From positions 310,001 through 374,000 of the forward strand of contig JABVCE010000029.1 of assembly GCA_014905635.1 (NCBI GenBank): DNA of 64,000 bases, written 5' to 3'. Position numbers and translations under genes: made by a program. The notes under the pieces were generated by a model. It was not told the DNA's origin. It made no database searches and saw nothing but the letters and a program-made list of their open reading frames with translations. This document shows positions 15,043 through 64,000 of the stretch, one piece after another. Position 1 is the first letter of the stretch, and each line of letters begins with the position of its first letter. Source of the stretch: Scenedesmus sp. PABB004. Its lineage: Eukaryota.

Positions 15043-15811
15043 TCACGCGCCGCCGCCGCGCAGCAGGCCCGGGCGCAGTAGGTTGTTGCGGCTCTTGATC
15101 ACGCCCGCGCCCGTGGCGGTGCTGGCGAGGCAGAAGAGGCCCAGGTAGGGGCTCGCAGCGCCGGGCGGCGCCAGCAGGCGGTCGGGCAGCTCGAGCCGGC
15201 CCACCGCCAGCGCGTCGACGCCCTCCAGCGCGCCGCCGTCGCCCGCGACGTCGGTGAGCAGGTACAGCAGCCGCCGCGGCGCGTCGACGCCGCGCACGAG
15301 GCCGAGGCCGAGGCACTCCTGCAGCGCCGGCGGCGCCGCCGGCGGGGCGCCGCCGCCGCCACTACACTGCTCGCCGCCGCCGCCGCCGCGCACGAGGCCG
15401 ACGACCGCGCCGTTCAGCGCGCGTGGCAGCTCGCCCGGCGCGACCTGCGCGTGCAGCAGCTCCACGCGGACGTCACTGAAGGGCACCACGAGCGGCACCG
15501 CCGCGGCGAGGCCCGCCGCGGCGTCGGCAAACTCGTCGCCCGGCTCGCCACCCGCGGCGGCTGCGCCTGCGCCTGCGGCGCTGCCGCCGCCGCCGCCGCC
15601 GCCGTCCGGCCGCCGCTGCTGCGGCGACTGCGGCTGCGGCGGCTGCTGCGGCTGCTGCTGCTGGTCCAGGGCGACCACGCGCTGCGCCCAGGCGAGCCAG
15701 GACAGCGCGCGGCTGTCCACGGCCGACAGCCCGCGGCCGGGCTTGCTGCTGCCCCCGGCGGCGGTGGCAGTGTCGCCCGACTGCCCGCTGAAGCAGGAGG
15801 CGGTGGGCGCG

Positions 15812-15843
<32 letters not shown>

Positions 15844-17416
15844 TGCCGCGTCAGCCGCGACGCTGGGCAGCTGCAGCAGCACCGGCTCCGCGGCGCCGCC
15901 GGCCGCTGCGTCGGCCCACCAGCAGCCTGGCGGCAGGTTCTTCTTGCTGTTGCTGCTGCGCATGTCGACCACTGCAAGGGAGGGAGGGAGGCAGGCGCGG
16001 CCGCCGCCGTGAGCGCCGGATGTGCTGCGCGCGCGCCGCCCCGGCCGCCGTCCGGCGCGCGCGGCCGCCGCGCACCGTGCGTCGGCGCCGCGCAGCGCAG
16101 CGCCTCGCCCAGCAGCTCCAGGCCGAGGCCCGTGATCCAGCCGGGCGTGTTGACGACCAGCGGCGGCGCCGGCTGCCCGGCCGCCGCCGCGCCGGCCGCG
16201 AGCTCGTAGTAGCGCGCCACGAGCGCCTGCACGCACTGCAGGTAGCGCCCGGGGTCGGACTGCGACGACACGTCGCCCTGCGGCGCGACCGGGCAGAGAG
16301 GCACAGGGTGGGCGGAGCGGCGCAGGTCACGCTGCGCGGCGGCCGTCGCGGGGCGGCCCAGGGCCGGCTGCAGGCTCGTGCGCACAGACGGCGCGCCTGG
16401 AAGTACGCGAGCAGCGGCCGCCGCTGCTGCAGGTGCGCCGGGCCGAAGAGCGGCTGCTGCAGCACGTGCAGCGAGAGCAGGCCCTGCGGCGCGGCGCGCG
16501 GGCGCGTCGGCCGGAGCCAGTCCGCGGGCGCGCTGCGCTGGCCGGCGGCGGCCGCGCCATGCCGTGCAGCGCGGCAGCGCACCGCTGGCGTGAGCTCCGG
16601 CTGCCCTGGGTCGAGGTCCAGGAACGCCACGCCGCCGCCGCCGGGGCGGGAGCTGAGCAGCGCATTCACCGCGAGCCGGCCAAACGCAGACTTGCCGGAG
16701 CCCTTGCACCCGACGACCGCAACGACGAGCGGGCGCGCGCCTGCGCCGGCCGCTGCGGCCGCCGCCGCCGCGAGGCCGTCGGCCGCCGCCGCCCACGCGG
16801 GCGGGACCTGCCACGCCGGCGGAGCGTCGGCGCTCGCCGCGTCCGCCAGCGCGTGGCCGCCGCCGCCGGAGCCGCCGTCGCACGTCGGCAGCGCGTGCAG
16901 CACCGCCTTGACCGGCGCGCTCGGCGGCGCGCACGGCGCCCGCGCCTCGCCCGACGCCGCCGCGAGCAGCAGGCCGCGCCCCAGCTTGGCGGGCGCGTGC
17001 AGCCGCACGGCGCCGCACTCCGGCGTGAGCAGCGCGCTGCGCGGCGGCGGCGTGTGGGCGGCGCGTGGGCGGCGGCCGGGGCGGTGCGGCGGGGCCCCGG
17101 GCCCGCGGCGCGGTCGCACCCGAAAACCTGCAGGCAGCCCGCCGTGACCTCCAGCACCACGCCGCCGGTCAGCACCACGCCCTGCGCGGCACGTCGCGCG
17201 CCAGGTCGGCCGCGGCCGCGGCGGCGGCAGCAGCGCCGGCGGCGGCCGCGGGCGCGCGCGGCCCGACCGCCGCGCCTGCCCCGGCGCCAGCTCCAGAGAC
17301 GTGAAGTCGGGCCCCTCCCGCACCACCACGCCCGCCGGCTGCTCGGGCGCCGTCTGCTCGGGCGCGGCCTTGCGGCGCTTGCCGCCCGGCCGCGCCTCGC
17401 CGCTCTTGCGCTTCAT
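15043..17416 (-). CDS. NOL9: Polynucleotide 5'-hydroxyl kinase NOL9/Grc3
   Basis: P-loop GCKGSGKS, FLDLDPGQPELT, LVVNTPGWITGLG, C-terminal CLGLGLVRGVD...LYLLT. NLS-like start MKRKS...KRRK. Confidence 0.85.
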
Positions 17417-17652: not shown

Positions 17653-18739
17653 TCACAGCTCCACGATCATGGGGCGCTTGGCCTTGACCTTGCGCCGCTT
17701 GCCGCCCGCCGCAGGCGCCCGCTGCTGCTGCTGCGACGGCGGCGGCTGCCCGCCGCCAGCAGCCGCCCCGCCCGCCGCGCCGGCGCTGCTGCCGGCTGCG
17801 CCCTGCCGCGCACCGCCCGGCCGGCCGCCTGCTCGCTCGCCGGCCTCCTCCTCCTCCTCTTCGCTCTCGCCGCTGTTGCTGCTGCCGCTGTCGTCGTCGT
17901 TGCTGCTGCCGCTCGCATGGTGCGGCTCCACCGCCACGTCGCCGCCCGCCGCGATGGCGCGCTCCGCCGCCGCCAGCGCCGCGTCGTCGTGCAGGTCCAG
18001 CAGCCCGCACGCGAGGTCCTGCTCGCGCGGGCGCGGGCGCGGCGGGGGCGGCGGCGGCGGCGGCGCGGTCACGCGCACCCGCGGTCGGCGGCCGGCACAC
18101 GGCGACGCCCGCGCTGCCTCGCGCAGCCGCACGCCCGCGCCGGCGCACCATCTGGATGACCTGGCCCTCCCCGCCGCGCGGCAGGTGCTCGATGTCCAGC
18201 TCGGCCGGGTCGCACGACTGCGCCGCGGCGGCGGCGGGCGCCGACGGCGAGGCGCGCGCGGTGGGCAGCGGTGACGCGGTCGGCGGTGGGCGGCGGCGGC
18301 TGCAGCACCAGGTCCCCCGGCGGGCCCGGCGGGCGCGCGGGCGCCGCGGCGGCGGCCCGCACCTGCAGGCGCTGCTCCAGCGCCGCGTTGGCCTGCTGCA
18401 GCTGCGGCAGGAAGCTCTTCACCTTGGACAGCACTGCGCGGGCGGCAGGGCGCGTGACGCTGCAGCGTTCACGGCGCGCAGCGGCCCTCGCGGCGCGGCC
18501 GCGCGGCCGCACCAGAGCTGGGCGGCAGGGCCGCGATGTTGGGGCGGCCCTGCCCGCTCGGCCCGCCCACCAGCAGCGCCCGTTCTGCGCGTGGCGGTGC
18601 GCGAGAGTTGGACCGACGTGACGCGCGCCCGCCGGCAGCGGTGCGGCGCGCCCGCGCGGCGCCCGGCCCCGCGCCGCGAGCGCGCACCCAGCGGCGACAG
18701 CGCCGGCGGCTCCAGGCGCTCCCGCTGCTGCGCCGACAT
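17653..18739 (-). CDS. DUF4598 / NOPCHAP1 (C12orf45)-like protein
   Basis: Spliced: MSAQQRERLEPP...SVLSKVKSFLPQLQQANAAL...LDIEHL...VIQM|DLACGLLD..., acidic tract, ending KRPMIVEL*. Confidence 0.7.
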
Positions 18740-19318
18740 GGCGGGGGACTGTGGCAAGCGTGGGGCCGCCGCCGGCCGCGCGCCGCTGCCGCTGCCGCTG
18801 CCGCCGCTGCTGCCGCCGCTGCTGCTGCGTGCGCCGGGCTGCTGCTGCGAGCGTGCCGGTGCAAGCGTCGACAGGAGGTGTGCGGCTCAGACGGCGGCAG
18901 CGGCGCAGCGGCCTAGGAGCGGCGGCGGCGGCGCGTGCCCGGGGCTCAGCGGCGGCCGGCGAGCGCCGGCGGTGCTCGGCTGCAACTGGCTTCTGCGGCA
19001 TGCGCTCCAAGTTCGCGCTGCTGCCGTCGGCACCGCCGTTCAGGGCAGCGCACTGCTGCGACCGAAGCGTCGCGGTCCAGGCGCGCGCGGTGCCGCGAAA
19101 GCCCGCCCCGCCTCGCACGCGGCCCCCGCGGCCCCCGCAGTCCGCACCCCGCTCCAGCGTCGACTGGGCCGCGTCGTCGCCGCCAGAGCTCGCCGCCCCA
19201 CGCGCGCAGGCCCCGCCGGCGAGGCCATCACTCCCGCCACCGCGCCCGGCGCGCCCCCTGCCGACCTTGCGGCCCGCCCGGCGAGCGCGGAGGCGCGTGA
19301 TCGGCCCGATCCGGCGCC

Positions 19319-22300
19319 ATGGCGATGGGCATGCCCTACGGGCTGCAGGCCATGCTCAAGGAGGGGCACAAGCACTTCAGCGGCGTCGAGGAGGCCGTCG
19401 TGAAGAACATCGAGGCCTGCAAGGCCCTCGCGCAGATGACCAAGACCTCGCTGGGGCCCAACGGTGCGCCGCCGGCGCGGCGCGGGCGCGGCGCGCGCCG
19501 CGGCGCCCGCGAGCGGCGCAGCAGCGGCGGCGCGCCGCGCGCCGGGCGCCGCCGCGGCCCATGCGCGCGCGCGCCGCCGCGCGGGCCCGCGCCCCGATCA
19601 GCCTTGAGAGGCGCCGCCGGGCCGCGACCGTCGCCGGCGCGGCGCGGCGCGGCGCGGGCCGCCCGCCGCCGCCGCCGCGCCGCGGCGCTCGCCCAAACCG
19701 CTCGCCCCAACCGCTCGCCACGCAACGCCCGCCTCCTTCCCTGTCTATCCCAGGCATGAACAAGATGGTGATCAACCACCTTGAGAAGCTGTTTGTGACG
19801 AGCGACGCGAGCACGATCGTGACCGAGATGGATGTGTACCACCCCGCCGCCAAGCTGCTCGTCATGGCCGCCAAGGCCCAGGCGGGCGAGGTCGGGGACG
19901 GGACCAACCTGGTGCGCGGCTGCGGGGCGCGGCGCGGCGCGGGGAGGGAGGAGCGGGAGGGAGGGACGACGGGAGGGAGGGAGGAGCGGGCGGGGAGGGA
20001 GGAGCGGGAGGAGCGGGGGAGGGGGAGGATGAGAGGGAGGAGAGGCGCTGAGCGCGGCGGCGCGCGGCGGCGCCGCGCGCAGGTGCTCACGCTCGCGGGC
20101 GAGCTGCTGGGCAACGCGGAGGCGCTGCTGCGCGACGGGCTGCACACGTCGGAGATCGCGGACGGCTACCAGCGCGCCGCCGACAAGGTGCGGGGGGCGC
20201 GAGCGCGCGAGCGCGGGCGCTGCGCCGGCGGCGGCAGCGCGCGCGCTCGCGCCAGCCGCGCGCGGGTGCGGGGCGGCGGCGACGTCGGGCTGCGCGCCAG
20301 GCGACTGAGCGCGCCGCGCCGCCGCCGCTGCCGCCGCCGCCGCTGCGGCGACCGGCAGGCGCTGGAGGTGCTGGAGTCGCTGGTGCTGCCCGGCACTGAG
20401 ACGCTCGACGTCAAGGACAAGGCCGCGGTGCGGCGGCCGGCGGCAGGGTGGCCTGGGCCTGGGCCTCGGCCTCGGGGGCGGCGGCGGGCGCAGGCCGCGC
20501 CGCCGCTGCCCCACAACCCCACACCACACACACGCGCGCCTGACTGGCTCCGCCGCCCCGCCGCTCCCCCCCCCCCGCCGCTTCTGCTGCAGGTCGCAAC
20601 GCGGCTGCGCGGCGCGATCAGCAGCAAGCAGCTCGGCTACGAGGACCTGCTGGCGCCGCTGATCGCGGAGGCGTGCATCGACGTGGTGCCCAAGAACCCG
20701 GCCAACTTCAATGTCGACAACGTGCGCATCGTCAAGATCATGGGCGGCGGCCTGCCCGACAGCGCCGTGGTCAAGGGCATGCTGCTCAAGCGCGACGCCG
20801 AGGGGACCGTCAAGGCGGCGACCGACGCCAAGGTCGCCGTCTACGCCCAGGTGCGGCGGCGGCCGCGGCGGCGGCCTGGCCGGCCGGGCGTGCGCGCGGG
20901 GTGCTGGTGGCTGGGGCGCTCCGGGGCGAAAGAGGCTGCTCGGGCGTGGGGCGCCGGCGCGCGCGGGCGCCAGGGGCTGGGGAGGAGCAGGGCAGGGCCC
21001 TCGCGCCGGCCCTCCTCGCCCGCCCACGCCGCCGCCGCCGCGGCGCGCAGGGCGTGGACACGTCTGGCCCCGAGACGAAGGGCACGGTGCTCATCAAGTC
21101 GGCGCAGGAGCTGGAGAGCTACTCGCGGTGCGGCGGCGGCGCCGCGCCGCGCTGCGCTCCGTCCCTTTCTCCCTCTGCCCCCCTCCCTCCCTCCTTCCCT
21201 CCCTCTCGTCTCCCTCTCTCACGCCCACCCACCCACACGCACGCCCACCACACGCGCCCACCCTCCAGGTCGGAGGAGGACACGCTGGAGGGGTACATCA
21301 AGGCGGTGGCCGACGCGGGCGCGCGCGTGCTCGTGTCGGGCGGCGCGGTCGGCGAGATGGCGATGCACTTTGCCGAGAAGTATGGCCTGCTGGTGCTGCG
21401 CATCCCGAGCAAGTTTGACCTGCGCCGCTTCTGCCGCGCGACCGGCGCGGTCGCGCTCGTCAAGCTCCAGCCCCCGCAGCCCGACGAGCTCGGCTTCGCC
21501 AAGCAGGCGCGGCCGCGCGGCGGGGGGCTGAGGCTTGAGGCTGAGCGGGGCGCGGCGCGGGCTGGCTGGGCGGGCGCGCGGCGCGCGGGGCTGGGCTGGG
21601 TGCGCGGGGCGGTCGGCGCCGCAGCCCTGCGCTCCCTCGCGTGGACACGCGCTGGCCGCCAACCCCCGCCCCCCACACACACACACGCACGCACACCGCG
21701 CGCAGATTGAGGTGCAGGAGGTCGGCGGCGCCAACTGCGTCGTGCTGCGCCAGGACGCGGCGCTGGGCAGCGTGTCGACGATCGTGCTGCGCGGCGGGAC
21801 GGAGGGCTTCCTGGACGACGTGGAGCGCGCGGTCGACGACGGCATCAACGCTTACAAGGCGCGGCGGCGCCCCGGGGGGGAGGGTTTAGGGGGCGTGGGC
21901 GGCGTCGAGGAGGGGTGAGGAGGTCCCGAGCGGCGGGCCGCCGCCGACGCCCGCGCCCCGCGCCGCCGCTCCGCTCCGCGCCGCCGCAGGCGCTCTGCCG
22001 CGACGCGCGCTGCGTGCCCGCGGGCGGCGCGTCCGAGGTCGAGATGGCGCGCCAGGTGCGCGCGTCGCCGGCGCTGCCGCACGCCCGCGCGCCCGCGCCC
22101 CTGCGCGCACATCCAGCACCACTGACCACGCCTCTCAAACCTCCGCACACACTCCCCGCCTACCACCACACACACACACCCCCGCCCCGCCCCAACAGGT
22201 CGCCGAGTTTGGCAAGAAGGCCACTGGGCTGGACCAGTACGCCATCGCGCGCTACGCGGAGGCGCTCGAGGTCGTGCCGCGCACGATCGCGGAGAACAGC

Positions 22301-22941
22301 GGCCTCCAGGCGGGCGACGTGCTCGCGCGCCTCCACGCCGCGCACGCCGCGGGCCAGGTGCGCGTGTGCGCGCGTGCATGCGGCGGCGGCGCGGCCCTGG
22401 GGGCGCCGCGACGGCGGGGCGCCGCCGGTTGGGTGTCGCGCGCGCCGCCGCGTCGTCCGCGCCGCATCTCACGCCCGCCGCCGCGTGCTGCGCGCGCCGC
22501 CGCGCCACGTCGCGCCGCCAGGCCAACGCGGGCGTTGACATCGAGGGCGGCGCGCCGAAGGACCTGTCGGCGGAGGGCATCATGGACGTGTTTGCCGCCA
22601 AGTGGTGGGCGGTCAAGCTCGCGACGGACGCGGTCGTCACGGTGCTCAAGGTGCGCGGCGGCACGCGCGCAGCACGCACAGCACGCGGCGATGAGGGCAG
22701 GGGAGAGTTGGAGAGAGCTGGGGAGCAGCATGTGCGGGTGCTGCTGGGGCGGCGGCGGCGCGGAGCTCGGGGTCACGGGCGCTGGTGGGGGTGAGGGCGC
22801 GCTGGACCACGCCGCCGCTGCCACAGCAGCCGACCGTGCCGCCGCCGCCTCCCCCTTTCCTCCCCGCAGGTCGACCAGATCATCATGGCCAAGCAGGCCG
22901 GCGGGCCCAAGCCCCGCGGCGGCGACGGCGACGACGACTGA
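19319..22941 (+). CDS. CCT8: T-complex protein 1 subunit theta
   Basis: MLKEGHKHFSG, TSLGPNG|MNKMVINHLEKLFVT, GDGTN, FNVDNVR, SKFDLRRFC, DDVERAVDDG, VDQIIMAKQAGGP. Confidence 0.95.
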
Positions 22942-23216
22942 CTGAGCGCGCGGACGAGGCGTGCCGGGGGGGGGGGGGGGTTTGGGCGGCGCGCCCCGCG
23001 GCGCGGCGCGGGCGGGCGAGGGGCGGGCCGGGGCCGGGCGCAGCCGCCGCAGCCGGCGGCGGCGCGCCGGGCGGGCGGGGCGTGCGGCGCGCGCGCATGC
23101 TGGGACAGGCATGCGGCGCGCACGGCCGTTGTGCAGCGGTGTACAGGCAGCGCGCGGGGGGCGCGGGCGGCCGTAAGCGCAGGTCGTGCCGCAGAGCGGA
23201 GAGTGTGCGTTCGCGC

Positions 23217-25490
23217 AGCCACCGCCGCCGCCAGCGGTCGCCGCCCGACCCTCCAGCGCTGCCCTAACACTGTGACCGGAGCTGTCCAGCAGCTCCGCAC
23301 ACTGCCGGCCGGCCGCCGCGCGCGCGACGGCCCGGGAGGTCAGCGCGCCGCCCGAACCCCTTCGGCCCTGGCCCGGCTGCGCCCCGGCGCGCCGCCGCCT
23401 CCGCCGCAGGCCCGCCCCCGCCCGGTCCTCACGCCCTCGCCGCAGGGCTCACCGCATCACGGCGAGCGGCCCCCGGCCCCCGGCTGTCTGTGCCGCCGCC
23501 GCCGCTCCGCGCCCGATGCTGCTCGCCCGCGCCACCGCCGCGCCCCTGGCGGCCCGCCACCATGGTTGTGGGACTGTTTCGATCCCGCCACGGCCGGTGC
23601 CGGCGCGCCTGGGCCGCCGGGCGCTGAGCTGCGGTGGGTGCTGCGCCGCGCAGCCATCACCGGGCCCCCAGCACGCGTGCGGCGCGCGGGCCAGCCCGGC
23701 AGCGCGGCTGCGGGCGATTGCAAGCACATCGATTCCAGATGGGCGCTCGCAGACCCGGACGCGCGCCCGGCAGCATGCTGGCCGCCCGGCAGCGCACGCC
23801 GCTGCTGCCGCCTGGGCCGCGCCGCCCTCGCCTCACCCCACTGCGCCTGCTGCGTCTGCCCTGCGGCACACGCAGAGGCGGCGGCGCCTCGGCGCGGCGG
23901 CAGCGGCGGCGGTCGTGGCGGCGGCAGGGGCAGCGGGCGGCAGGCGCGGGAGCGCATCGACGCCAGGGAGGCGCCGCAGAGCACGGTGCGGCGCCGCTGA
24001 CTGCAGCGAGCCGGGCGCTCACAGGGCTGTGGACAGGGCACGAACCTCTGTCCGCGCCACAGGCCTCGGCGCTGGCCAAGACCATCACCGTCATGATCCG
24101 CGACGCTGAGGGCCTGCCGGAACTGGAGAGCGTGCTGCAGGAGTGGGGCGGCAGCTTTGACGCCATCCACGCGGCAGCGGCCTTCACCAAGGCGGCCAAG
24201 CTGGCGGGACGGCGGCCGGCAGATGTCAGGGCCCTGCTGGCGCGGCTGGCGCCGCTTTGGGACGCGCTGGAGCCTGGGTGGACGATGCAGGGCATGGCCA
24301 ACGTGCTGTGGGCGGCCGGCAAGGTGGGCTGCGCTGACGACCGCCTGTGGAGCGGCACGCTGGCGGCATACCTGGAACACGTGGCGGCTGAGGAGCACGG
24401 CCAGCACCTCACCAATGCCGTGTACGGCCTGTCGGCGGTCGCCGCTGGCAACAAGGGCGCCGTGCCGGGCGTGCCGCGGCAGGAGCTGGAGGCGGCGGTG
24501 GCAGCGCTGGTGGAGCGGCTGTGGATCCTGGCGACCAGCCCTGACGGCGTTCAGTCGCATCACACCTCTAACGCCCTGTACGGCTGCGCCAGGCTGCGGC
24601 TCAACCCGGGCGACGCCCAGGTGTCTGGCCTGCTGCAGGCGCTCGCACGGCCGGCCATGTTGGGGCGTGCGAAGCCCCAGGAACTGGCCAACGTGCTGTG
24701 GGCGGCGAGCGAGCTGCAGCTGCGTTGCGGCTGGCAGCCGGCAGTCAGGGAAGCGGCCTGGCGGCAGCTGCTGGGCGAGGCTGGCTTGGAGCGTGTGGCG
24801 GACAAGGGCGACCCTCAAGGGGCAGCCAACGCCGCCCTTGCACTGGCGCGGCTGGCGACGGCGGAGCCGCCGGCCATCGACCGCGAGCTGGCGACAGAGG
24901 GCGTGCAACGGTTGCTGGAGGGCGCGGTGGGACAGCAGCTGGGAGGCTGGGATGCACAGAATGTTGCAAACGTCATGTGGGTGTGCGCCAGACTGGGCTT
25001 GCGTGGGCAGGGCTTTCTGCAGTGCGCGGCAGACGCGGCGCCGGGCTGGCTGCCTGGCGCGGTTGCGCCAAACCTCAACCAAGCTGCCTGGGCGTGCGCC
25101 ATGCTGCGCTTTGAGCACCCCCAGCTGCTGGCGGCGCTGGTGGCGCGCGCGCGGCAGTTGCTGGCGCCGGGCGAGAGCCGCAGGCGGCTGACCCAGAGCA
25201 ATGCTGCTGGGCTCGTGTCAACTGTGGGCTGGGCCGTGGCGGTGCTGGACCAGGCGCAGCTGGCAGAGGGCGCGCGGGGCTTGGTCGTGGCGAGCGGGGC
25301 GCAGCGTCTGGGCGCCAAGCTGCACCCCGCTCACGGCGAGCGGCTGTGGGTGCTGCACGCCTGGCTGCTGCGCCGCGGCCTGCTGGACGGCCGCGGCCTG
25401 GCGGGCGCGCTGAGCGCCGCCCAGCTGGCCGCGTGCGAGGCAGCAGTGCGCAGCGACCCCGCCGTGCCGCTGCCGGGCGGCGAGTGAGTG
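23217..25490 (+). repeat. Dispersed ~2.3 kb duplication (upstream region plus OPR-like gene); homologous to 31057-33415 (-) and 62693-64000 (+)
   Basis: Shared non-coding blocks such as gccagcggtcgcc...gaccctccagcgctgccc and similar intron sequences. Confidence 0.9.
23516..25487 (+). CDS. OPR-like helical-repeat protein, copy 1 (exons 23516-23633, 23876-23985, 24063-25487); transit peptide-like start, no RAP domain seen
   Basis: Degenerate ~38-50 aa repeats (QGMANVLWAAGKVG, PQELANVLWAASEL, AQNVANVMWVCARLG). Both GT-AG introns keep frame. Confidence 0.75.
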
Positions 25491-25619
25491 GTCAAGGTTG
25501 GATGCACGAGGCGTTGCAACCGAGTCATCGCCACCCCGCCGCTCGACCCCCCGCTTGCTCCGCGTGCCGCAGCACTCGGCCGCTCACTCCTCTCAGCACG
25601 CGCTGCGCCAGCGCCCCGC

Positions 25620-28600
25620 TCAGCGCTGGTGGTGCCCCCCAGGCGGCGGCGCCCCCGCCTGCCGCGGCTGCTGCTGCCCCGCGCCGCCCCCGCCGCCCTG
25701 CTGCTCCAGCAGCTCCTGCAGCGACAGCGTCGAGCCGGGGCGGCTCGTGCTCGCGGCGCTGGCGCCGTCGCCGTCGCGGTGCGCCTGCTTGGACCAGAGC
25801 TCGGCGTAGAGCCCGCCCGCCGCGAGCAGCTCGCCGTGCGTGCCCGACTCCGTGACCACGCCCTCGCGCAGCACCACGATCAGGTCGGCGTCCGCGACCG
25901 TGCTCAGGCGGTGCGCGACGATGAAGGTCGTGCGCGCGCTGCGGCTGGCCGCGAGCGACGCCTGCGTTGGTCGCGGGCGGCGGGACGCGCGGCAGCGGCG
26001 AGTCGGCGCGGTGGCGGTGAGGCTGTGTCGCGGCGGCCGAGCCGGCGCCCAGGGCGGGGCGGCCGCGCAGGGGCGGCGCCGCGCCTGTATCTTTTTCTCT
26101 GTGATTGTGTCCAGCGCGCTCGTCGCCTCGTCGAGCACGAGAAGGGGCGGGTTCTTGAGCAGCGCCCTGCGCGTGGTCGGCGGCCGGTCGGCGGTCGGTC
26201 GGCGGTGCGCTGTGCGCGGGAGCAGGGGGCAGGCGGGGTGCGGGGTGCGTGCGGTGTGCGGTGTCCGCACCGCGCAAACGCGACGCGCTGCTTCTCGCCG
26301 CCCGACAGCCGCAGCCCGCGCTCGCCGACGACGGTGTCGTAGCCCTGCGAGCGCGGCGGCGGGCGGCCGCGGAGGGCGAGGCTGACGCGGCGGGCGCGGG
26401 GTCGCGCGCTCGCGCGTCGAGCGAGGCCGGCGGGCGCAGCCGCCACAGCGGCCAGCCGCGTGCGCGCCGCCGCGGCGCGCCTTGGGGAAGCGCGTGGTGA
26501 TGGGGTCGTGGATGCAGGCCGCGTCGGCGGCGGCCTCGACCTCGGCGTCGGTCGCGTCGTTGCGGCCGTAGCGGATGTTGTAGCGAATGGTGTCGTTGAA
26601 CAGCACGCAGTCCTGCATCAGGCGCAGAGAGTTGAGTGTGTGTGAGTGTGTTGAGTGATGAGCTGCCCCAGGGCGCGGGCCCTGGCCCGCAGCGCGGCGC
26701 GGCGCCGCCGCGCGCCCCGCGGCGCCGGCGGCGGCGCGCGCCTGCGGCACCATGCCGATCACGCGCCGCAGGCTGGCCTGGGTGATGGACCGCAGGTCCT
26801 GCCCGTCCACCAGGATCGCGCCGCCGCTGACGTCGAAGAACCTGCGGGGGCGCGGCCGGGGCGGGCGGGCGGGCGCATGAGCGGCGGCCGTGGAGGGGTG
26901 CGCAAGGAGGCCCAGCCCGGGTGCCGCCGACGCAGCCGCGCGCGCGCGCCTGAACAGCAGGCGCGTGAGCGTGGACTTGCCGCTGCCCGTGGCGCCGACG
27001 AACGCGACGGTGGAGCCGCCGGGGACGCTGAAGGACACCTGGCGGCGGCGGCGCCCGGGGAGGGGGGCGGGGTGAGTGGCCCTGGCCGCCTGCGCACGGC
27101 CTGCGCGTGCAGGCATTCGCCGCAAGACCCATCCGACCCTGCAGACGCCCCCCCCCCTCGGCCCCGACCACGCACCCCCTTGAGCACGCTCGCGCCCGGC
27201 TCGTAGCCGAACGAGACGTCCCGGAAATCCACCGACCCGCCGCGCAGCACGAGGTCGCGCGCGCCGGGCGCGTCGGTCACCTGCGCACGCGCCGCTAGGC
27301 GCGCCGGCGTGGGGCCGTGCGCGGGGCGGCGCGGCGCGCCGCGCGCCCCGCCGCCTGCGCCCCAGTGCCCCCCGGGAGCGGTGGGCTTGCAGCGGGCGCC
27401 ACGCGCCTTGCCGGGCGTGTCGAGGAGGCCCAGGAGGTTCTCCATGTCAATCATGTACTGCTGGATCACGCTGTGGCGCGGCGTGGTGTGACGTGGCGTG
27501 ATGAGGGAGGGTTCAGGGCGCGGCAGGGCTCAGACGCCGAGGCCGGGCGGCCCAGCGAGCGGGCGCCACCCTCCCGGCTCCCGCGCAAGCCACGCCACGC
27601 CGGGCTCACCGGTAGTAGGTGCCGAAGAAGTTGAGGGGCCCGTAGAGCTGCGCCATGAGCGTGAGGAAGAGCACCGTGTCGCCCACAGTCAGCGCGCCCT
27701 GTGGCAGCACCAGGTGGCACGGGATCAGAGTGTCAAGGGCAGGAAGCGAGGGCGGCGGGCAGCGGGCAGCGGGCGCAGGCGGCGGCGGCGGGCGGGCGGC
27801 GGCGTGCGGCGCGCCTTGGCGACGCCCGCGGTGCAGGCGAGCACGCCGGCGGAGATGCCTGCAAACATGATGCCGCTCTGGACCACGTTGAGGACGTTGA
27901 GGCTCGACAGGAAGCGGTACTCGGCAGACTGGGTTTAGGGGTTCGGGGCGGGGCAGCGTGGGGGCATCGGTCGGCCGCGGCACACGCCCACGACCCCGCC
28001 CACGCCCGCCCACACGCGCCCAACACGCGCACACGCCCCACACACCCTCTCACGCGCCCGCGCACCTGGTACTCGTCGATCGCCTCCCCGTAGCGTGCCT
28101 GCTCGAGGGGCTCGTTGGTGAAGTACTTGACCGTCTCCCAGTTGAGCAGCGCGTCGGTCACGCGCGCGCTGCGCGCGTTCTCGGTGCGGTTCATGTCGCG
28201 CCGGAACGTGCCGCGCCACTCTGCGGGGTTTAACGGGGCGGGCGCGCGGAGTTTTGGTGGGAGTGCGGGGCGCGGGGGCGGACAGAGACAGAGTGCGGCC
28301 GCAGCGTGCAGCACATAGCATGCAGCGCGCACAGCACGCGCAGCACGCACAGCACAGCGCGGCGCAGCGCACCCGTGACGATGATGGTGAGTGGGATGTA
28401 CGACCCGATCGTCACAAACACGATCAGCGCGACCCACGGCTCCAGCGCGCCCGCGAGGTACGTCGCCGCCGCGAGCATGTCCACGATCTGTGCGGCGCGC
28501 GGCACGGGCACAGGGCGGCGGCGGCGGCGGCGGCGGCGCAGGCTCGGGACGGCCGCGCATCGCGCGCCCTGCTGGCCTCACAGCCGCGCACTGTGAGTCT

Positions 28601-30674
28601 GCGTCCCGGGCGGGGCGCGCGCGTGCGGGGCGTGCCTGGGGCGCGATGGAGAAGAGGATGGTTGACAGCACGTTTTGGATGGCCGCGGTGCCGCGGTCGA
28701 CGACCTTGGTGACCTCCCCGGTCTTGCGTGAGAGGTGGAAGGAGAGGTCCAGGTCCAGCACGTGCCCAAAGACGGCGAGGCTCACGCGCCTGCGGCACGG
28801 CACGGCAGTGCGCGGGAGGCGGCACCCGTCAAGCTCAGCTCCAAGCGCCGTCCGAGTCCCTGCCCGCCGCGCGCGGCTGGAACATGCGAGAGGGGACCAC
28901 ATGCCCCGCACCGGTAGGCGTCCTGCGTGACTGGGATCCAGAGCCACTGGCGGAGGTTGTTCACAAAGCCCGTGATGCCACCGCCCGCGCCGCCCTGGAA
29001 GAAGATGGCGGCGAGGTAGAGCAGCTCCCTGCGTGGCCAGGGGCGACGGGGGGAAGGGGCGCAGGCGGGAGGCGCGAGGTGAGAAGTGGCATGTGTGCGG
29101 GCGGCGTGCAAGAGAGCTTGCACGGGCGGGCCGGCCGTCGCCGCGGCTGTGCAGCAGCCGGCCAGCCGCTGCGGCCGCCAAGGGCCCCGCCCGCAGTCAC
29201 ACGGCGCACCAGGGCTCCAGCAGCGTGAGGAAGCTCGGGCGCTCCCCCGGCGCGGCGCTCGTCGCGGCGGCGAGCTGGTCCACGAGGCGCTTGTAGGTGA
29301 TGGGCACCGCGAGGTTCAGCACGCGCATGATCACCAGCAGCAGCACGCACGCGAGCACGCGTGCCTGCAGCGCCGGCGCCGTCGGCCACGCGTACCTGCG
29401 CGCGGCAGCGGCGGCACGGCGTGGCGGCGCAGGCGGAGGGTGTGCGGCCGCGCCCTGGCTGCGCTGCCGACCCCCGCTGCTTTTTTTGGCGCCGCCTCCG
29501 TCCGCCGAGCCCGGTGCCAGCCCCCTGCCGCGCTCAATGCCGCACTTGCAGGCGTCCAGGAACAGCGTCGTCCAGGTGTGCCCGCCCTCGCCGCCCGCCG
29601 CGGCGGCAGCCTCGATGTCGCCCGGCAGCGCCGCGTAGCCGTCGCCGCGCGCGGCCGCCCGCGACTGCGCGCCGCGTTGCGGTGCGGCGCGGCCGGGCGT
29701 CAGCGGCGAGCCGCTGAGGGTCGCGCCGCCGGGCACGCTGAGCACGCGGTGCTGGCGCACGCGTCGCCGCGCCGCCGCGCCTGCTGGACCTCCATCGTCA
29801 GCACGAGCGCCGCGAGCGCTGCGGCCATCATGCAGGCCCAGATGTAGCTGCGCATGTAGGCGGGCGGGAAGAGCGAGCCGTCAAGGTACAGCACCATGCC
29901 GGCATACACGCTGCGGTTTAGGGAGGTTGAGGGCGGTTCAGGGCGGCGGCGGGGCAGGTCGGCCAGCGGCGGCGCAGGGCGGGGCGAGGAGCGGCGGCCG
30001 GGCGCGAGCGAGGAGTGCACACGCGCGCCAGGGGCCGGTCGGCGGGCCGGCAGCGGCGCCAGGCAGCAGGTGCGTGCCTGTATACGTAGAGGCCCAGCGC
30101 CGCGACGACGAGGGGGCGCAGCCAGCGCAGCGGCGCGTGCGCCCGCCGCGCGGCGCGGCCGGCGCTCGCGGCGGCGAGCGCCCAGACGCCCGCGAGCGCG
30201 GCGTGGTGCGCGGTGTGGAAGGGCAGGCCGGGGAGCAGGATCCAGGAGGCGAGCGTGAAGGCGGCGTGGATGAGCACGAGCAGACCCGCTGCGAGCAGCA
30301 GCGCCGTCTCGCGCCCGACCAGGCCGGGCTTCGCCGCCGGCGCGCGCGCCGCCCAGGCGCGGCTGGACGCGTCTGCGCGTTCGAGAGGGAGGCGGGGTGG
30401 GAGCGGGCGGGCCGCGGCGGCGGCGGCCGGCGGCGCGCGGCGCACGGCGCACGGCAGCAGCGGCGCCGCCGCTCGGAGGGCCGCGCCGGCGCGCGCGACC
30501 GCCGGCTGCCGGCGCCGCTGGTCTCAGCGCTCCTTCGTTCCCCCCTGACCACGCCCGCGCACCCTGGGCGACCGCCAGCGCCACGCCGACCGCGAGCAGG
30601 GCGCCTGACGAGATGGTCTCCGCCCAGCACGGGCTGAACGCCGCCCGGCCCGCATCGCCGCACCACGCGTCCAT
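25620..30674 (-). CDS. Half-size ABC transporter B family, HMT1/ABCB6-type (N-terminal hydrophobic extension, TMD, NBD)
   Basis: FHLSRKTGEV, DALLNWETVKYF, QLYGPLNFFGTYYR, Walker A GATGSGKST, LSGGEKQR, LVLDEATSALD, IVAHRLST. Confidence 0.9.
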
Positions 30675-31059
30675 GGCGGAGGCGGGGCTCAGGCCAGCGC
30701 CTCGATCAGGGCCCGCCCGGCAGCCGCGAGCGCGGCGGCGACGCTGTCGTGGGCAGCAGCGGCGCGAGGAGAGGCTGCGGCCGCGCGGCTGGGGCGGGCT
30801 CAGCGTGGAGCGCTGGCGTGAGGGGGCCGGCCGGGCACCGCGTCTGACGGGCCAGCGGCGGCGGCGCGCGGCGATGCGGGGGCGTTGCGAGGGCCTGTCA
30901 CGCGGCGGGGTTCGCGCGGCAGGGCCCAGCCGAGCACCGCTGCTGGCGGCCCGGCGCAGCCGCACGCCGGCGTGCACCGCTCCACCACCGCTGCAAGCGC
31001 CGGCCGCCGGCCCACACCACGCTGCGCCTCCCTCCAACCTCACACCACGCACGCACCGC

Positions 31060-33024
31060 TCACTCGCCGCCCGGCAGCACCGCGGCGGGGTCGCTGCGTG
31101 CCGCCGCTGCCTCGCAAGACGCCAGCTGGGCGGCACTCAGCGCGCCCGCCAGGCCGCGGCCGTCCAGCAGGCTGCGGCGCAGCAGCCAGGAGTGCAGCAC
31201 CCACAGCCGCTCGCCGTGAGCGGGGTGCAGCTTGGCGCCCAGCCGCTGCGCCCCGCTCACCACGACCAGCCCCCGCACGCCCTCCGCCAGCTGCGCCTGG
31301 TCCAGAACCGCCACGGCCCAGCATACTGTGGACGCAAGCCGTGCGTCCACAGCTTCTGCCAGGGGCACCCCCCTGCTGCCACCGCCCGGCACCAGCAGCT
31401 GCTGCGCACGCGCGACCAGCGCCGCCAGCAGCTGCGGGTGCTCAAAGCGCAGCGTGGCGCACGCCCAGGCAGCTTGGGTGAGATTTGGCGCAACCGCGCC
31501 AGGCAACCAACCCGGCGCCGAGTCCGCCGCGCGCTGCAGAAAGTTCTGCTCGCTCAGGCGCAGCTTGACGCACACCCACAGAGCGTTCGACACCGCCTGT
31601 GCGTCCCAGCCTCCCAGCTGCTGTGCCCCCGCGCCCTCCAGCAGCCGCTGCACGCCCTCGGTCGCCAGCTCGCGGCAGATGGCCGGCGGCTCCGCCGTCG
31701 CCAGCCGTGCCAGCGCAAGAGCGACACTGGCCACTTCTTGAGGGGTGCCGTCACCCTCCACGCGCTCCAGGCCCCCCTCGCCCAGCAGCTGCCGCCAGGC
31801 CGCCTCCCTGACCGCCGGCCGCCAGCCGCAGCGCAGCTGCAGCTTGCTCGCCGCCCACAGCGAGTTGCAAATGTGCTGAAGGTCGGTACGCTCCAGGGTG
31901 GCCGGCCGTGCGAGCGCCTGCAGCAGGCCCGACAGCTCGGCGTCGCCCGGGTTGAGCCGCAGCCTGGCGCAGCCGTACAGGGCGTTTGAGATGTCTTGAG
32001 GTTGCACGCCATCTGGACTGGTTGCAAGGATCCACAGCCGCTCCACCAGCGCTGCCACCGCCGCCTCCAGCTCCGGCCGCGGCACGCCGGGCACGGTGCC
32101 CTTGTGGGCAGCGGCGACCGCCGACAGGCCGTACACGGCGTTGGCAATGTCTTGACCGCTGGCCTGTCCAAGCGTGTCGAGGCATGCCGCCAGCGTACCG
32201 CTCCACAGGCGGTCGTCGGCATAGCCCACCTTGCCGGCCGCCCACAGCACGTTGGCCAAGCCCTGCATCGTCCAGCCAGGCTCCAGCGCGTCCCACAGCG
32301 GCGCCAGGCGTGCCAGCAGGGCCCTGACATCTGCCGGCCGCCGTCCCGCCAGCTTGGCCGCCTTGGTGAAGGCCGCTGCCGCGTGGATGGCGTCAAAGCT
32401 GCCGCCCCACTCCTGCAGCACGCCCTCCAGCTCCGGCAGGCTCTCAGCGTCGCGGATCATGATGGTGATGGTCTTGGTCAGCGCCGAGGCCTGTGCGGCG
32501 CGGACAGCAGGTTTGAGGCACAGCCCTGCGAGCGGCCGCGCCCAGCCCGCCGCAGTCTGAGCGCCGCACCGTGCTCTGCGGCGCCTCCCTGGCGTCGATG
32601 CTCTCGCGCCGGCCGCGCGCTGCTCCAGCCGCCGCCACGACCGCCGCCGCTGCCGCCACGCTTGGGCGCCGCGGCCTCTGCTTGTGCAGCATGGCAGACG
32701 CAGCAGGCGCAGTGGGGTGAGGCGAGGGCGGCGCGGCCCAGGCGGCAGCAGCAGCAGCGTGCGCTGGCGGGCGGCCAGCATGCTGCCGGGCGCGCGGCCG
32801 GGTCTGGAGCGCAGCACCACGGAAGCAAAGTGCTTCCAGTCGCCCGCAGGCGCGCTGCCGGGCTGGCCCGCGCGCCGCACGCGCGCAGGGGGGCCGCTGA
32901 TGGCTGCGCGGCGCAGCACCCACCGCGGCTCAGCGCCCGGCGGCGGCCGTGGCGGGATAGAAACAGTCCCATAACCATGGTGGCGGGCCGCCAGGGGCGC
33001 GGCGCTGGCGCGGGCGAGCAGCAT
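31060..33024 (-). CDS. OPR-like helical-repeat protein, copy 2 (5' exons carry small deletions; possible pseudogene or altered splicing)
   Basis: The 654-aa unspliced ORF has a main exon (32490-31060) nearly collinear with copy 1. Confidence 0.7.
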   Translation of the reverse strand: MLLARASAAPLAARHHGYGTVSIPPRPPPGAEPRWVLRRAAISGPPARVRRAGQPGSAPAGDWKHFASVVLRSRPGRAPGSMLAARQRTLLLLPPGPRRPRLTPLRLLRLPCCTSRGRGAQAWRQRRRSWRRLEQRAAGARASTPGRRRRARCGAQTAAGWARPLAGLCLKPAVRAAQASALTKTITIMIRDAESLPELEGVLQEWGGSFDAIHAAAAFTKAAKLAGRRPADVRALLARLAPLWDALEPGWTMQGLANVLWAAGKVGYADDRLWSGTLAACLDTLGQASGQDIANAVYGLSAVAAAHKGTVPGVPRPELEAAVAALVERLWILATSPDGVQPQDISNALYGCARLRLNPGDAELSGLLQALARPATLERTDLQHICNSLWAASKLQLRCGWRPAVREAAWRQLLGEGGLERVEGDGTPQEVASVALALARLATAEPPAICRELATEGVQRLLEGAGAQQLGGWDAQAVSNALWVCVKLRLSEQNFLQRAADSAPGWLPGAVAPNLTQAAWACATLRFEHPQLLAALVARAQQLLVPGGGSRGVPLAEAVDARLASTVCWAVAVLDQAQLAEGVRGLVVVSGAQRLGAKLHPAHGERLWVLHSWLLRRSLLDGRGLAGALSAAQLASCEAAAARSDPAAVLPGGE

Positions 33025-33466
33025 CGGGCGCGGAGCGGCGGCGGCACAGACAGCCGGGGGCGGGGGGCCAACGACGGCCGCTCGCCGTGATGTGGTGAGG
33101 CCTGCGGCGAGGGCGTGAGGACCGGGCGGGTCCAGGCCGGTCTGGCGGGACTGCCCCGGCGGCGGCGGCGCGCCGGGGCGCAGCGGGCCAGCGGGTTCGG
33201 GCGGCGCGCGCTGGCGCCCGGGCCGTTGCGCGCGCGGCGGCTGGCCGGCAGTGTGCGAAGCTGCTGGACAGCTCCTTTCACAGCGCTAGGGCAGCGCTGG
33301 AGGGTCGGGAGGCGACCGCTGGCGGCGGCGGTAGCTGAGGACCGAGCGCGCGCTGGTCGGCGGCGCAGCCGGCCGCTGGCTCTCTCGCCCTTGCACACGC
33401 TCGCTCACGCCTTAACCAACCGACTCCCAGTCATGCATAACGCCGTTCGGCTCACTGGCAGTGAGA

Positions 33467-62289: not shown

Positions 62290-63087
62290 GGCGCCGGGCC
62301 GGGCGCCCGAGCGGGCCCGAGCACGCCTGGCGCCCGGATCCGGGCCGGAGCGGGTCGCGCCGCGCGCGTGGAGAACGCTGCTGGCGTTGCGGACAGCCCG
62401 GAGCCGCGTCCCGGGCGCGAGCGGCGCGGGGCACGCGCGGGCGGGGGCGCCTAGATGGCCTGCGCTCGCGGGTCGAGGACGGCGCGGGGAGGGTGGGCGG
62501 TCGGTCCGGATGTGTGCCGGCGGGAGCGGCGGGCGTTGTGGAGGAGCGGGCGCACTCGGCGGCGGCGCGCGCTGCAGCGGCGGCGGCGCAGCGCGGGGCC
62601 GCAACCCTAGCGCCGCCCGCGGGTGCCGCCGTCGATCGGCGGTGGCGGCGTGCAGAGTGGGAGCTCGCTGGGCCACCACCACCGCCGGTGAATTAAGAGG
62701 TGGGCGAGCGTGCGCAAGAGCAGAGAGCAGCGGGGCGCCTGGCTGCGCCGCCGACCAGCGCGCGCTCGGTCTGCCGCCGCCTCTGCCAGCGGTCGCCTCC
62801 CCCGACCCTCCAGCGCTGCCCCACGGCTGTGCCAGGCGCTAGCCGGCAGCTTTGCGCACACTGCCGGCCGGCCGCCGCGCGCGACGGCCCGGCCGGTCAG
62901 AGCGCGCCGCCCGAACCCCGCTGGTCGGCTGCGCGCCGGCGCGCCGCCGCCGCCGCCGCAGGCCCGCCAGACCGGCCTGGCCCCGCCCGGTCCTCACCCC
63001 CTCGCCGCAGGCCTCACCACATCACGGCGAGCGGCCGTCGTTGGCCCCCCGCCCCCGGCTGTCTGTGCCGCCGCCGCTTGGCGCCCG

Positions 63088-64000
63088 ATGCTGCTCGCCC
63101 GCGCCACCGCCGCGCCCCTGGCGGCCCGTCACCATGCCTCTGGGACTGCTCTCGCCCCGCCACGACCGGCGCCGGCGTGGCTGGGCCGCCGGGCGCTGAG
63201 CTGCGGTGGGTGCTGCGCCGCGCGGCCATCAGCGGGCCCCCAGCGCGCGTGCGGCGCGCGGGCCAGCCCGGCAGCGCGTCGGCGGGCGGCTCGTAGCATT
63301 CTGTTTTTGTGGCGATACGCGCCAGACCCGGCCGCGCGCCCGGCAGCATGCTGGCCGCCCGGCAGCGCACGCCGCTGCCGCCTGGGCCGCGCCGCCCTCG
63401 CCTCACCCCACTGAGCCTGCTGCTGCTGCCCTGCTGTGTAAGCAGCCTCAACTGCGCCCCGGCGCGACGGCAGCGGCGGCGGCCGTGGCGGCGGCTGGAG
63501 CAGCGCGCGGGCGCCGCGGGAGCGCATCGACGCCAGGGAGGCGCCGCAGAGCACGGTGCGGCGCCGCAGACTGCTGTGGGCTGGGCGCAGCCACTCGCAG
63601 GGCCACGACACTAACCTGATGTACCCGCCGTGCAGGCCTCACCTCTGGCCAAGACCATCGGCATCATGATCCGCGACGTTGAGAGCCTGCCGGAGCTGGA
63701 GGGTGTGCTGCAGGAGTGGGGCGGCAGCTTTGACGCCGTCCACGCGGCGGCGGCCTTCGCCAAGGCAGCCAAGATGGCGGGGCGGCAGCCCGCAGATGTC
63801 AGGGACCTGCTGGCACGCCTGGCGCCACTGTGGGGGGCGCTGGAGCCTGGCTGGACGGTGCAGGGCATGGCCAACGTGCTGTGGGCGGCCGGCAAGGTGG
63901 GCTGCGCTGACGACCGCCTGTGGAGCGGCACGCTGGCGGCGTGCCTTGACACTCTCGGACAGGCCAACGACCAAGACATGGCCAACGTGGTGTACGGGCT
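63088..64000 (+). CDS. OPR-like helical-repeat protein, copy 3 (exons 63088-63205, 63446-63555, 63636->end; partial)
   Basis: Exon sizes match copy 1 (118 and 110 nt). Intron 2 has a CTAAC branch point. Exon 3 reads IMIRDVESLPELEGVLQEWGGSFDAVH. Confidence 0.8.

Follow-up and report, generated by a model that had tools for sequence, protein, structure and literature searches.

The window analysed here is a 64,000-nucleotide stretch of the Scenedesmus sp. PABB004 genome (contig JABVCE010000029.1, positions 310,001 to 374,000), hereafter G000:C23:310001-374000, where G000 is the host genome assembly (39.97 Mb, 80 contigs) and C23 is the window's contig. It holds three of four closely related gene copies that, judged by motif, fold and profile, encode an octotricopeptide-repeat (OPR) protein that has no RAP domain. 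Subject to the accuracy of the assembly, recombination has made mosaics of the copies, in which complete repeat starts are shared in varying combinations. The differences between the copies concentrate at these repeat starts. Starting from the fold, the absence of RAP, the positional bias, the mosaic pattern and the multi-copy homologs, we consider it probable that the copies encode an imported RAP-less OPR protein, which binds short single-stranded organellar RNA and acts by occupancy, and whose specificities have been changed via duplication, conversion and substitution.

Copy 1 is a duplicated unit of ~2.3 kb (23216..25492, + strand), which comprises a 5′ region, exons and introns, is 86% identical in DNA to copy 2, and ends only a few bases from the stop codon. 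Its exon 3 (24063..25487, +) encodes the whole OPR solenoid of 474 amino acids (P0001), with seven canonical repeats and capping helical pairs, and ends before any RAP domain. Copy 2 occupies 31055..33337 on the opposite (−) strand, with exon 3 open at 32490-31060, and its coding match at 32490-31063 (−) is identical to copy 1 at 387 of 473 residues. Under the three-exon model described below, its frame is broken, because predicted exons 1 and 2 have lost 17 nt and 2 nt. The 5′ part of copy 3 lies at 62693..64000 (+), with the ATG at 63088 and exon 3 from 63636; this copy is intact under the same model and runs past the window edge, to G000:C23:375057. Copy 4, at G000:C23:252216-250811, lies outside the window, is represented by the public model P0003, and has a 1-nt deletion in exon 3. 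A tblastn search revealed only these four close copies in the assembly, spread over ~125 kb. Their duplicated units are 85-89% identical in DNA and their proteins 79-87% identical in pairwise comparisons, and the intact copies 1 and 3 are 80% identical.

What kind of protein do the copies encode? There are seven degenerate helix-turn-helix repeats of the type with the OPR signature PQ-x-x-[AS]-N-x-L-W-A, and Q5, N9 and W12 dominate across 59 homologs. A profile built from 38 family sequences (A2) matches mL115, RESC6 and mL123 with E-values of 6e-23, 2e-14 and 8e-13, respectively, and a 7-sequence profile retrieves 140 representatives at E<=1e-30. The AlphaFold model of the solenoid is all-helical, with a predicted local distance difference test score (pLDDT) of 94.6 and a predicted template modelling score (pTM) of 0.91, and the top Foldseek ranks are occupied by RESC6, 7pkt_O and solenoid chains of the Polytomella and other algal mitoribosomes (mL115 at 1.7e-6). 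The profile, the model and these structural matches thus bear out the OPR-like solenoid that the original prediction, made from the letters of the sequence, had proposed. Our repeat numbering fits the position-12 anchor and the 16-20 linker in section 21 of PMC13126933 and P22 in the excerpts of PMC12691811. The PPPEW-like motif that follows the first helix appears in degenerate forms only (P at 21-22 in some repeats and W at 25 in repeat 1); according to the same excerpts of PMC12691811, this motif is unrecognisable in about a quarter of OPR motifs. Pfam has no OPR model (PMC13126933), and FAST_1 scores above the cut-off in two homologs. The ESM Atlas contains RESC6/FAST_1-bearing clusters from Chlorophyta at 0.91, which we treat as a lead only. 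The relative mL115 is described, in the excerpts of PMC8660880, as an ASA2-like/OPR protein that binds the single-stranded 3′ end of an rRNA fragment. From the family only, we infer sequence-specific RNA binding by the copies.

The absence of the nuclease-like RAP domain, which the original prediction had also claimed, holds for the whole contig: C23 has no match to PF08373 at E<=0.1, and none of the 12 matches in the assembly falls on it. In addition, scans of copies 1-3, P0003 and P0004-P0016 for RAP were negative, and among the 34 proteins scanned RAP was found only in four longer, weaker matches. The terminal motif is shown by 40 of the 59 homologs, of which 37 end within 34 residues past it, and ~130 bp separate copy 1 from the convergent ABC-transporter gene. 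A hidden RAP exon, reached by splicing over the stop codon at a GTGAG, was considered and rejected, since C23 has no RAP match and the transcript-derived Enallax open reading frames (ORFs) end at the same place. Moreover, a second OPR family, encoded on contigs C10 and C42, can be aligned with the subfamily over its full length up to the helix that precedes RAP (hhalign probability 100), and the subfamily therefore corresponds to an OPR-RAP chassis that stops before RAP.

Next, we describe where the copies vary. As anchor of each repeat we used the conserved N/Q, numbered as position 9, which falls at residues 80, 118, 170, 210, 256, 303 and 340, and the alignment of the four copies contains 468 ungapped columns among 477. 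Variable columns make up 37 of 56 at repeat positions 3-10 and 107 of 412 elsewhere (Fisher 6e-9). The span 3-10 was chosen after seeing the data; a jitter test, which maximises over offsets and jitters the anchors, gave p=0.0014 for 8-codon windows and p=0.0046 for a single position, so the variation is not evenly spread. The minimum number of changes, summed over the seven repeats, is 10 at position 6, 9 at position 3, 8 at position 8 and 7 at position 10, and only 2 at each of Q5 and N9. Positions 3, 6 and 8 vary in six of the seven repeats and position 10 in five. The same bias is present between the intact copies 1 and 3 alone, which differ at 26 of 56 patch columns and 68 of 412 others; only one of the seven repeats has the same residue at position 6 in both. 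The patch excess survives when the tolerance of each column, taken from 34 members of the family, is allowed for (p=1.4e-8; entropy of the patches 2.24 vs 2.13).

The variable patches (positions 3-10, all on the + strand in copy 1) lie at 24396..24419 in repeat 2, where position 6 reads H/D/D/D in copies 1 to 4, at 24552..24575 in repeat 3 (H/D/A/D), at 24672..24695 in repeat 4 (E/H/E/H), at 24810..24833 in repeat 5 (G/E/Q/E), at 24951..24974 in repeat 6 (N/A/D/A), and at 25062..25085 in repeat 7 (N/N/A/D). The corresponding stretch of repeat 1 (24282..24305, +) is almost invariant, and additional divergent zones occur outside the patches, at residues ~304-321 and ~371-387. The five motif pairs and the copy-3 motif quoted in the original prediction are all present in their places, and its central claim of variation at the same site of every repeat stands as a clustering at repeat starts; "every repeat" is slightly too strong, given the nearly fixed repeat 1 and the other divergent zones. 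No repeat has been gained or lost among the four copies. In the AlphaFold model, each patch coincides with the N-cap and the first two turns of helix A, and positions 6, 9 and 10 probably line the inner groove of the modelled solenoid. One OPR position is presumed to be the main determinant, to which the three preceding positions contribute; PMC13126933, which cites a thesis on this point, gives no number in its text.

The mosaic structure of the copies is evident from the clustering of their 80 informative sites (p=5e-5). An unbroken run of 84 polymorphic sites, spanning 339 bp, is shared by copies 2 and 4 (24356-24694 in copy 1 numbering), and copy 2 is identical to copy 4 at ~32197-31862 except for the 1-nt deletion of copy 4. 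Copies 1 and 3 agree at 20 successive polymorphic sites (24658-24711) over the repeat 4 patch, and copies 1, 2 and 4 agree around 25314-25359. Consistently, segment-wise branch lengths improve the fit by 73 log-likelihood units for 10 parameters. Part of these shared tracts could come from assembly error. A 3′ flank of ~280 bp is common to copies 2 (window ~30400-31060) and 3 (C23 ~375.1-375.4 kb) and is missing from copies 1 and 4; its sharing by copies 2 and 3, although the coding sequence of copy 2 is closest to that of copy 4, is another sign of mosaic history.

The patches also differ in codon make-up. In every copy, the GC content at third codon positions (GC3) is 0.67 in the patches and 0.88 elsewhere (jitter p=0.0014), in a window with a GC content of 74-82%; one neighbouring exon has a GC3 of 0.99. 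Glutamine is encoded by 16 CAA and 14 CAG codons in the patches and by 3 and 75, respectively, elsewhere. A/T-ending codons (CAA, CCT, GCA and AAT) thus gather at the repeat starts of a genome that otherwise uses almost exclusively G/C-ending ones. In the scaffold, singletons drift from G/C to A/T (56 vs 6 synonymous changes). Both of the two patch sequences that we searched for donor cassettes, with 2 mismatches, were found only in the copies themselves. We read the low patch GC3 as the mark of sites where codons are replaced quickly and homogenisation does not reach, an explanation that is incomplete.

How strongly are these sites selected? The ratio of non-synonymous to synonymous substitution rates (dN/dS, omega) is based on four sequences, because metagenome locus scans for homolog DNA yielded 45 and 161 pattern matches, none of which was confirmed. 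By the NG86 method, omega is 0.64 in the patches and 0.40 elsewhere. In a GY-type codon model, it is 0.68 for positions 3-10, 1.02-1.25 for positions 3/6/8/10 when these are given a separate synonymous rate, 0.31-0.39 for positions 4/5/7/9, and 0.21-0.47 for the rest (scaffold 0.21 under F3x4). With a shared synonymous rate, positions 3/6/8/10, chosen post hoc, reach 1.66 (p=0.014, F3x4) or 2.39 (equal codon frequencies). The comparison of M1a with M2a gave p=0.27, or p=0.08 with three segments. Positions 3/6/8/10 are therefore at least released from constraint, and the site-wise test suggested by the original prediction yields an omega of about 1 at these positions, not significantly above it. 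A raised synonymous rate in the patches (NG86 proportion of synonymous differences 0.35 vs 0.19) was considered and rejected: it is significant only with equal codon frequencies (p=0.001; F3x4, p=0.06), and residue-matched pairs near the patches have a synonymous divergence of 0.18 vs 0.11 (p=0.20).

Judged from sequence, the RAP-less subfamily is old and multi-copy across the Scenedesmaceae and is not a novelty of one genome. The named homologs come from Tetradesmus, Scenedesmus and Enallax, and members outside this assembly include Enallax transcript ORFs marked complete, four Tetradesmus obliquus models and two Scenedesmus sp. models. In a FastTree phylogeny of 64 sequences, the four copies form one clade (support 1.0), and other tight clades likewise point to repeated local duplication. 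Three Tetradesmus obliquus sequences (P0162, P0172 and P0175) have accession numbers <=33 apart, a hint of a local cluster. A distant member of the subfamily (L018; 37-39% identity) lies on the same contig at C23:105455-106957; this old single-copy member has a GC3 of 0.97, and the public model P0006 (1206 aa) apparently fuses it with unrelated downstream exons. The expansion is thus RAP-less and outside the NCL group of Chlamydomonas, as originally proposed, but it consists of only four close copies, two of them apparently broken, within an old multi-copy subfamily. Species-specific OPR expansions are common (PMC13126933). Our literature search, directed at the RAP-less subfamily or the code position, found no account of this subfamily, and Tetradesmus is unnamed in the main text of PMC13126933, whose supplements, outside that search, may list these proteins.

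The positional bias recurs in these homologs. The 59 outside sequences, a subset of all matches, consist of 22 of the best near-full-length profile matches and P0155-P0191. From them we drew 23 disjoint pairs, a mixture of orthologs and paralogs treated alike and 50-98% identical, in which 392 of 1071 patch sites differ, as compared to 2060 of 6938 other sites (p=7e-6). The patch exceeds the rest in 20 of the 23 pairs, and positions 6 (74/134) and 3 (70/134) differ most, followed by position 1. Position 6 is mainly D, A, N, H, E, G or Q, a small and mostly polar set, and the 45 members without gaps at the seven position-6 sites carry 44 distinct 7-letter strings.

The second OPR family comprises ~8 genes with regular, near-identical 38-residue repeats, the number of which differs between genes. 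Its loci (L019-L023) lie at ~8-10, 21-23, 52-54, 67-70, 74-76 and 240-242 kb of C10 and at 47-49 and 73-75 kb of C42. The C-terminus is RAP-like, with one match over and six under the Pfam cut-off. Among its 18 distinct repeats, variability is highest at position 6, then at 24 and 3, and GC3 also dips at repeat positions 1-6. In architecture this family resembles NCL more than the flagged one does, and it is perhaps a cleaner dataset for the recognition code. Two further features were noted here: an in-frame TAG midway through the longest array of repeats (L020:4894-4896; G000:C10 ~9.9 kb, −), and the arrangement of L022 and L023 as inverted copies, 98% identical and ~5 kb apart.

For copy 1, we predict a gene of three exons. 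Predicted exon 1 (23516..23633, +) retains its ATG and GT donor in all four copies, and its start agrees with that of P0003. It would encode an Arg/Ala/Pro-rich, transit-peptide-like N-terminus whose first 39 positions are free of acidic residues, and which the N-termini of the homologs resemble. Predicted exon 2 (23876..23985, +), a Gly/Arg-rich linker, is bounded by an AG acceptor and a GT donor and joins exons 1 and 3 in frame in copies 1, 3 and 4. Predicted intron 2 (23986..24062, +; 77 bp, GT...CAG) contains an in-frame stop in copy 3. The resulting product of copy 1 would have 550 residues, and in copies 1, 3 and 4 alike the frame stays open as far as exon 3. We judged an intronless reading from an ATG at ~23775 to be less likely: it is open in copies 1 and 2, and copy 2 would be intact under it, but it meets stops in copy 3 and frame shifts among the copies. 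This second ATG opens an Arg/Pro/Leu-rich frame that is retained in all four copies, and may be an alternative start or exon. In addition, the presumed non-coding segment 23231-23562 (7% divergence upstream) and most of predicted intron 1 (23634-23875) are better conserved than exon 3 (13%).

On the reading that we favour, the copies would encode an organelle-imported OPR protein devoid of RAP, in which each helical pair would read about one base of single-stranded RNA with position 6 and its neighbours, where helix A begins. Binding alone would act, by shielding an RNA end or by making a site inaccessible or accessible. The subfamily, which is old in the Scenedesmaceae and keeps its scaffold fixed, would duplicate repeatedly in each lineage, and the four neighbouring copies would exchange DNA by gene conversion or crossover. 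This exchange would keep the scaffold ~80-87% alike and deal repeat-start cassettes into new combinations. The code residues would turn over at a roughly neutral rate or slightly above it, and each copy would thereby acquire a different predicted RNA target. The best-studied OPR proteins are plastid proteins. The targets here may be in the plastid or the mitochondrion, and the solved relatives are mitochondrial. RNA binding, the face that bears the residues, organelle import, splicing and selection for diversity are the steps that this reading adds to the data.

Several observations weigh against it. The Pfam scan of P0001 returned no family at E<=1, the repeat spacing is irregular (37-52 residues, as compared to ~38 in OPR proteins), and the solved OPR-like relatives include ASA2, which has a non-RNA role. 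The role of position 6 as the code residue is presumed, and in the C10/C42 family position 24 varies almost as much. The enrichment among outside pairs is modest (odds ratio 1.4 vs 5.6 here), and three of the 23 pairs run the opposite way. Two of the four copies (2 and 4) are apparently broken, and only copies 1 and 3 look intact. No omega is significantly above 1 without post hoc site choice, and about half of the private scaffold changes are non-synonymous in all four copies, so the constraint is not tight. Divergence also peaks in non-coding parts: its mean is 27% in predicted intron 2, vs 13% in exon 3, and a sharp peak lies at 23711-23770. Finally, the excerpts of PMC8660880 describe the contacts between OPR proteins and rRNA as charge-based.

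Some of these observations fit drift in a spare, partly decaying family, in which specificity residues are free, the scaffold is held by fold and conversion, and the variety is non-adaptive. Omega values of 0.68-1.25 with non-significant site tests, the broken frames of two copies, the decay of scaffold singletons from G/C to A/T and the nature of position 3, which belongs to the N-cap/loop and is permissive in helical repeats of any kind (entropy 3.0), all speak for drift, which we regard as the most serious alternative, albeit clearly less likely. However, the patch columns are far more variable than equally tolerant columns elsewhere, position 6 is confined to its small set of residues, and several genera have kept more than one copy of the subfamily, with transcripts marked complete in the case of Enallax. 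Moreover, the 339-bp conversion tracts cover three patches, and conversion alone would erase the patch differences. A structural or protein-binding solenoid, in which the variable face follows changes in a partner protein or a fragment of rRNA and no base code is involved, is suggested by the best solved relatives (mitoribosome subunits, RESC6 and ASA2); this is improbable, as the identity to the solved chains is only 12-18%, and core ribosomal subunits would not be expected to come from genes that are multi-copy in particular lineages and carry 44 distinct strings among 45 members.

The low GC3 of the patches, their CAA-rich glutamine codons and the GC3 dip in the C10/C42 repeats might instead betray a directed diversifier, which rewrites the repeat starts by cassette conversion from silent donors or by local mutagenesis. 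We hold this to be very unlikely: both patch sequences searched occur only in the copies themselves, no C>T context is favoured in the patches (13 events over four contexts), the synonymous divergence at unchanged residues is not significantly raised, and rapid codon turnover before re-optimisation would be a simpler cause of the dip. Equally slight are the chances of a partial assembly artefact, in which polishing with paralog reads made the identical tracts and the small indels. A genome of 78% GC, the single-base deletion in copy 4 and the perfect 339-bp tract are compatible with it, but the copies have different flanks and proteins only 79-87% identical, the tracts are common to three different pairings, and a 17-nt deletion is atypical for read error. 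The recurrence of the positional bias in outside homologs, and between copies 1 and 3 alone, also argues against an artefact.

The genomic surroundings of the copies are ordinary. The copy 1 unit sits between a TCP-1/CCT chaperonin gene (18622-22940, +) and a convergent ABC-transporter gene (25623-27446, −), and further neighbours encode a fibrillin (8094-8864, −) and a CLP1 P-loop protein (15417-17168, −); all of these genes are intron-rich. A mobile element was considered as the carrier of the unit and rejected, with terminal repeats and target-site duplications judged by eye on the alignment: the 5′ 830 bp of the copy 1 unit have exactly four full matches in the assembly, a count that is a lower bound, and the copies share flanks of unequal length.

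Among known systems, the NCL (NCC-like) OPR-RAP proteins of Chlamydomonas share with the copies the OPR repeats, recent duplication in one chromosomal region and native targets described as unknown in the excerpts of PMC8635915 and PMC8226300. Single substitutions in NCC1 and NCC2 yielded new RNA targets, according to the same excerpts and those of bioRxiv 10.1101/2022.06.16.496473. In contrast to NCL, with 32-49 genes in the excerpted sources, the flagged family has no RAP and consists of four dispersed copies over ~125 kb; the NCL orthogroup is Chlamydomonas-specific (excerpts of PMC8226300), whereas the flagged subfamily occurs in Tetradesmus, Scenedesmus and Enallax. The copies are therefore not NCL members, on RAP and on range, as set by the published descriptions of NCL and not by direct sequence comparison. 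The solved chains mL115, mL123, mS107 and trypanosome RESC6 are the closest by profile and fold and have a similar N-terminal capping module, but they are stable complex subunits with 12-18% identity to a family that is multi-copy and fast-changing. The C10/C42 family, which aligns up to the last pre-RAP helix and is likewise most variable at position 6, differs in its regular 38-residue repeats of varying number and its RAP-like C-terminus.

The best evolutionary analogue, in our view, is the restorer-of-fertility-like pentatricopeptide-repeat (RFL-PPR) family of flowering plants. These proteins are helical-repeat organellar RNA binders without a catalytic domain, in which base-reading residues are substituted fast on a conserved scaffold and genes are recombinant or converted chimeras (excerpts of PMC5075784). 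Both features, recombination between paralogs and variation focused on presumed specificity positions, are found in the flagged copies. The copies differ from RFL-PPR in being OPR proteins, in their fixed repeat number, and in having no known conflict such as male sterility; moreover, positive selection is established for RFL, whereas omega is ~1 here. By this analogy, our best reading is that the scaffold is homogenised while the code residues turn over, as in the organellar RNA-binder repertoires of RFL-PPR and NCL.

Turnover of specificity residues together with paralog recombination, known from RFL-PPR and NCL, would thus recur in a third lineage, without RAP. The evolutionary theme is already known, and the surprise is therefore moderate; the mosaic nature of the copies and the odd, low-GC codon make-up of the patches had escaped the original prediction. 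Far more tentatively, the recombining RAP-less repertoire of the Scenedesmaceae may serve the adaptive surveillance or suppression of fast-changing organellar RNAs, with broken copies donating cassettes and A/T-rich codons marking selected sites that escape homogenisation. If so, this repertoire, directed against mobile introns, new ORFs, fragment ends or RNA parasites, would be an algal counterpart of the plant restorer-of-fertility genes. The natural dataset for the OPR code that the original prediction had foreseen exists as a large set of position-6 variants, which will inform on the code only after their targets have been measured. How OPR proteins recognise RNA is still unsettled, and a subfamily that offers many natural variants on one scaffold could help to crack RNA recognition by these proteins.

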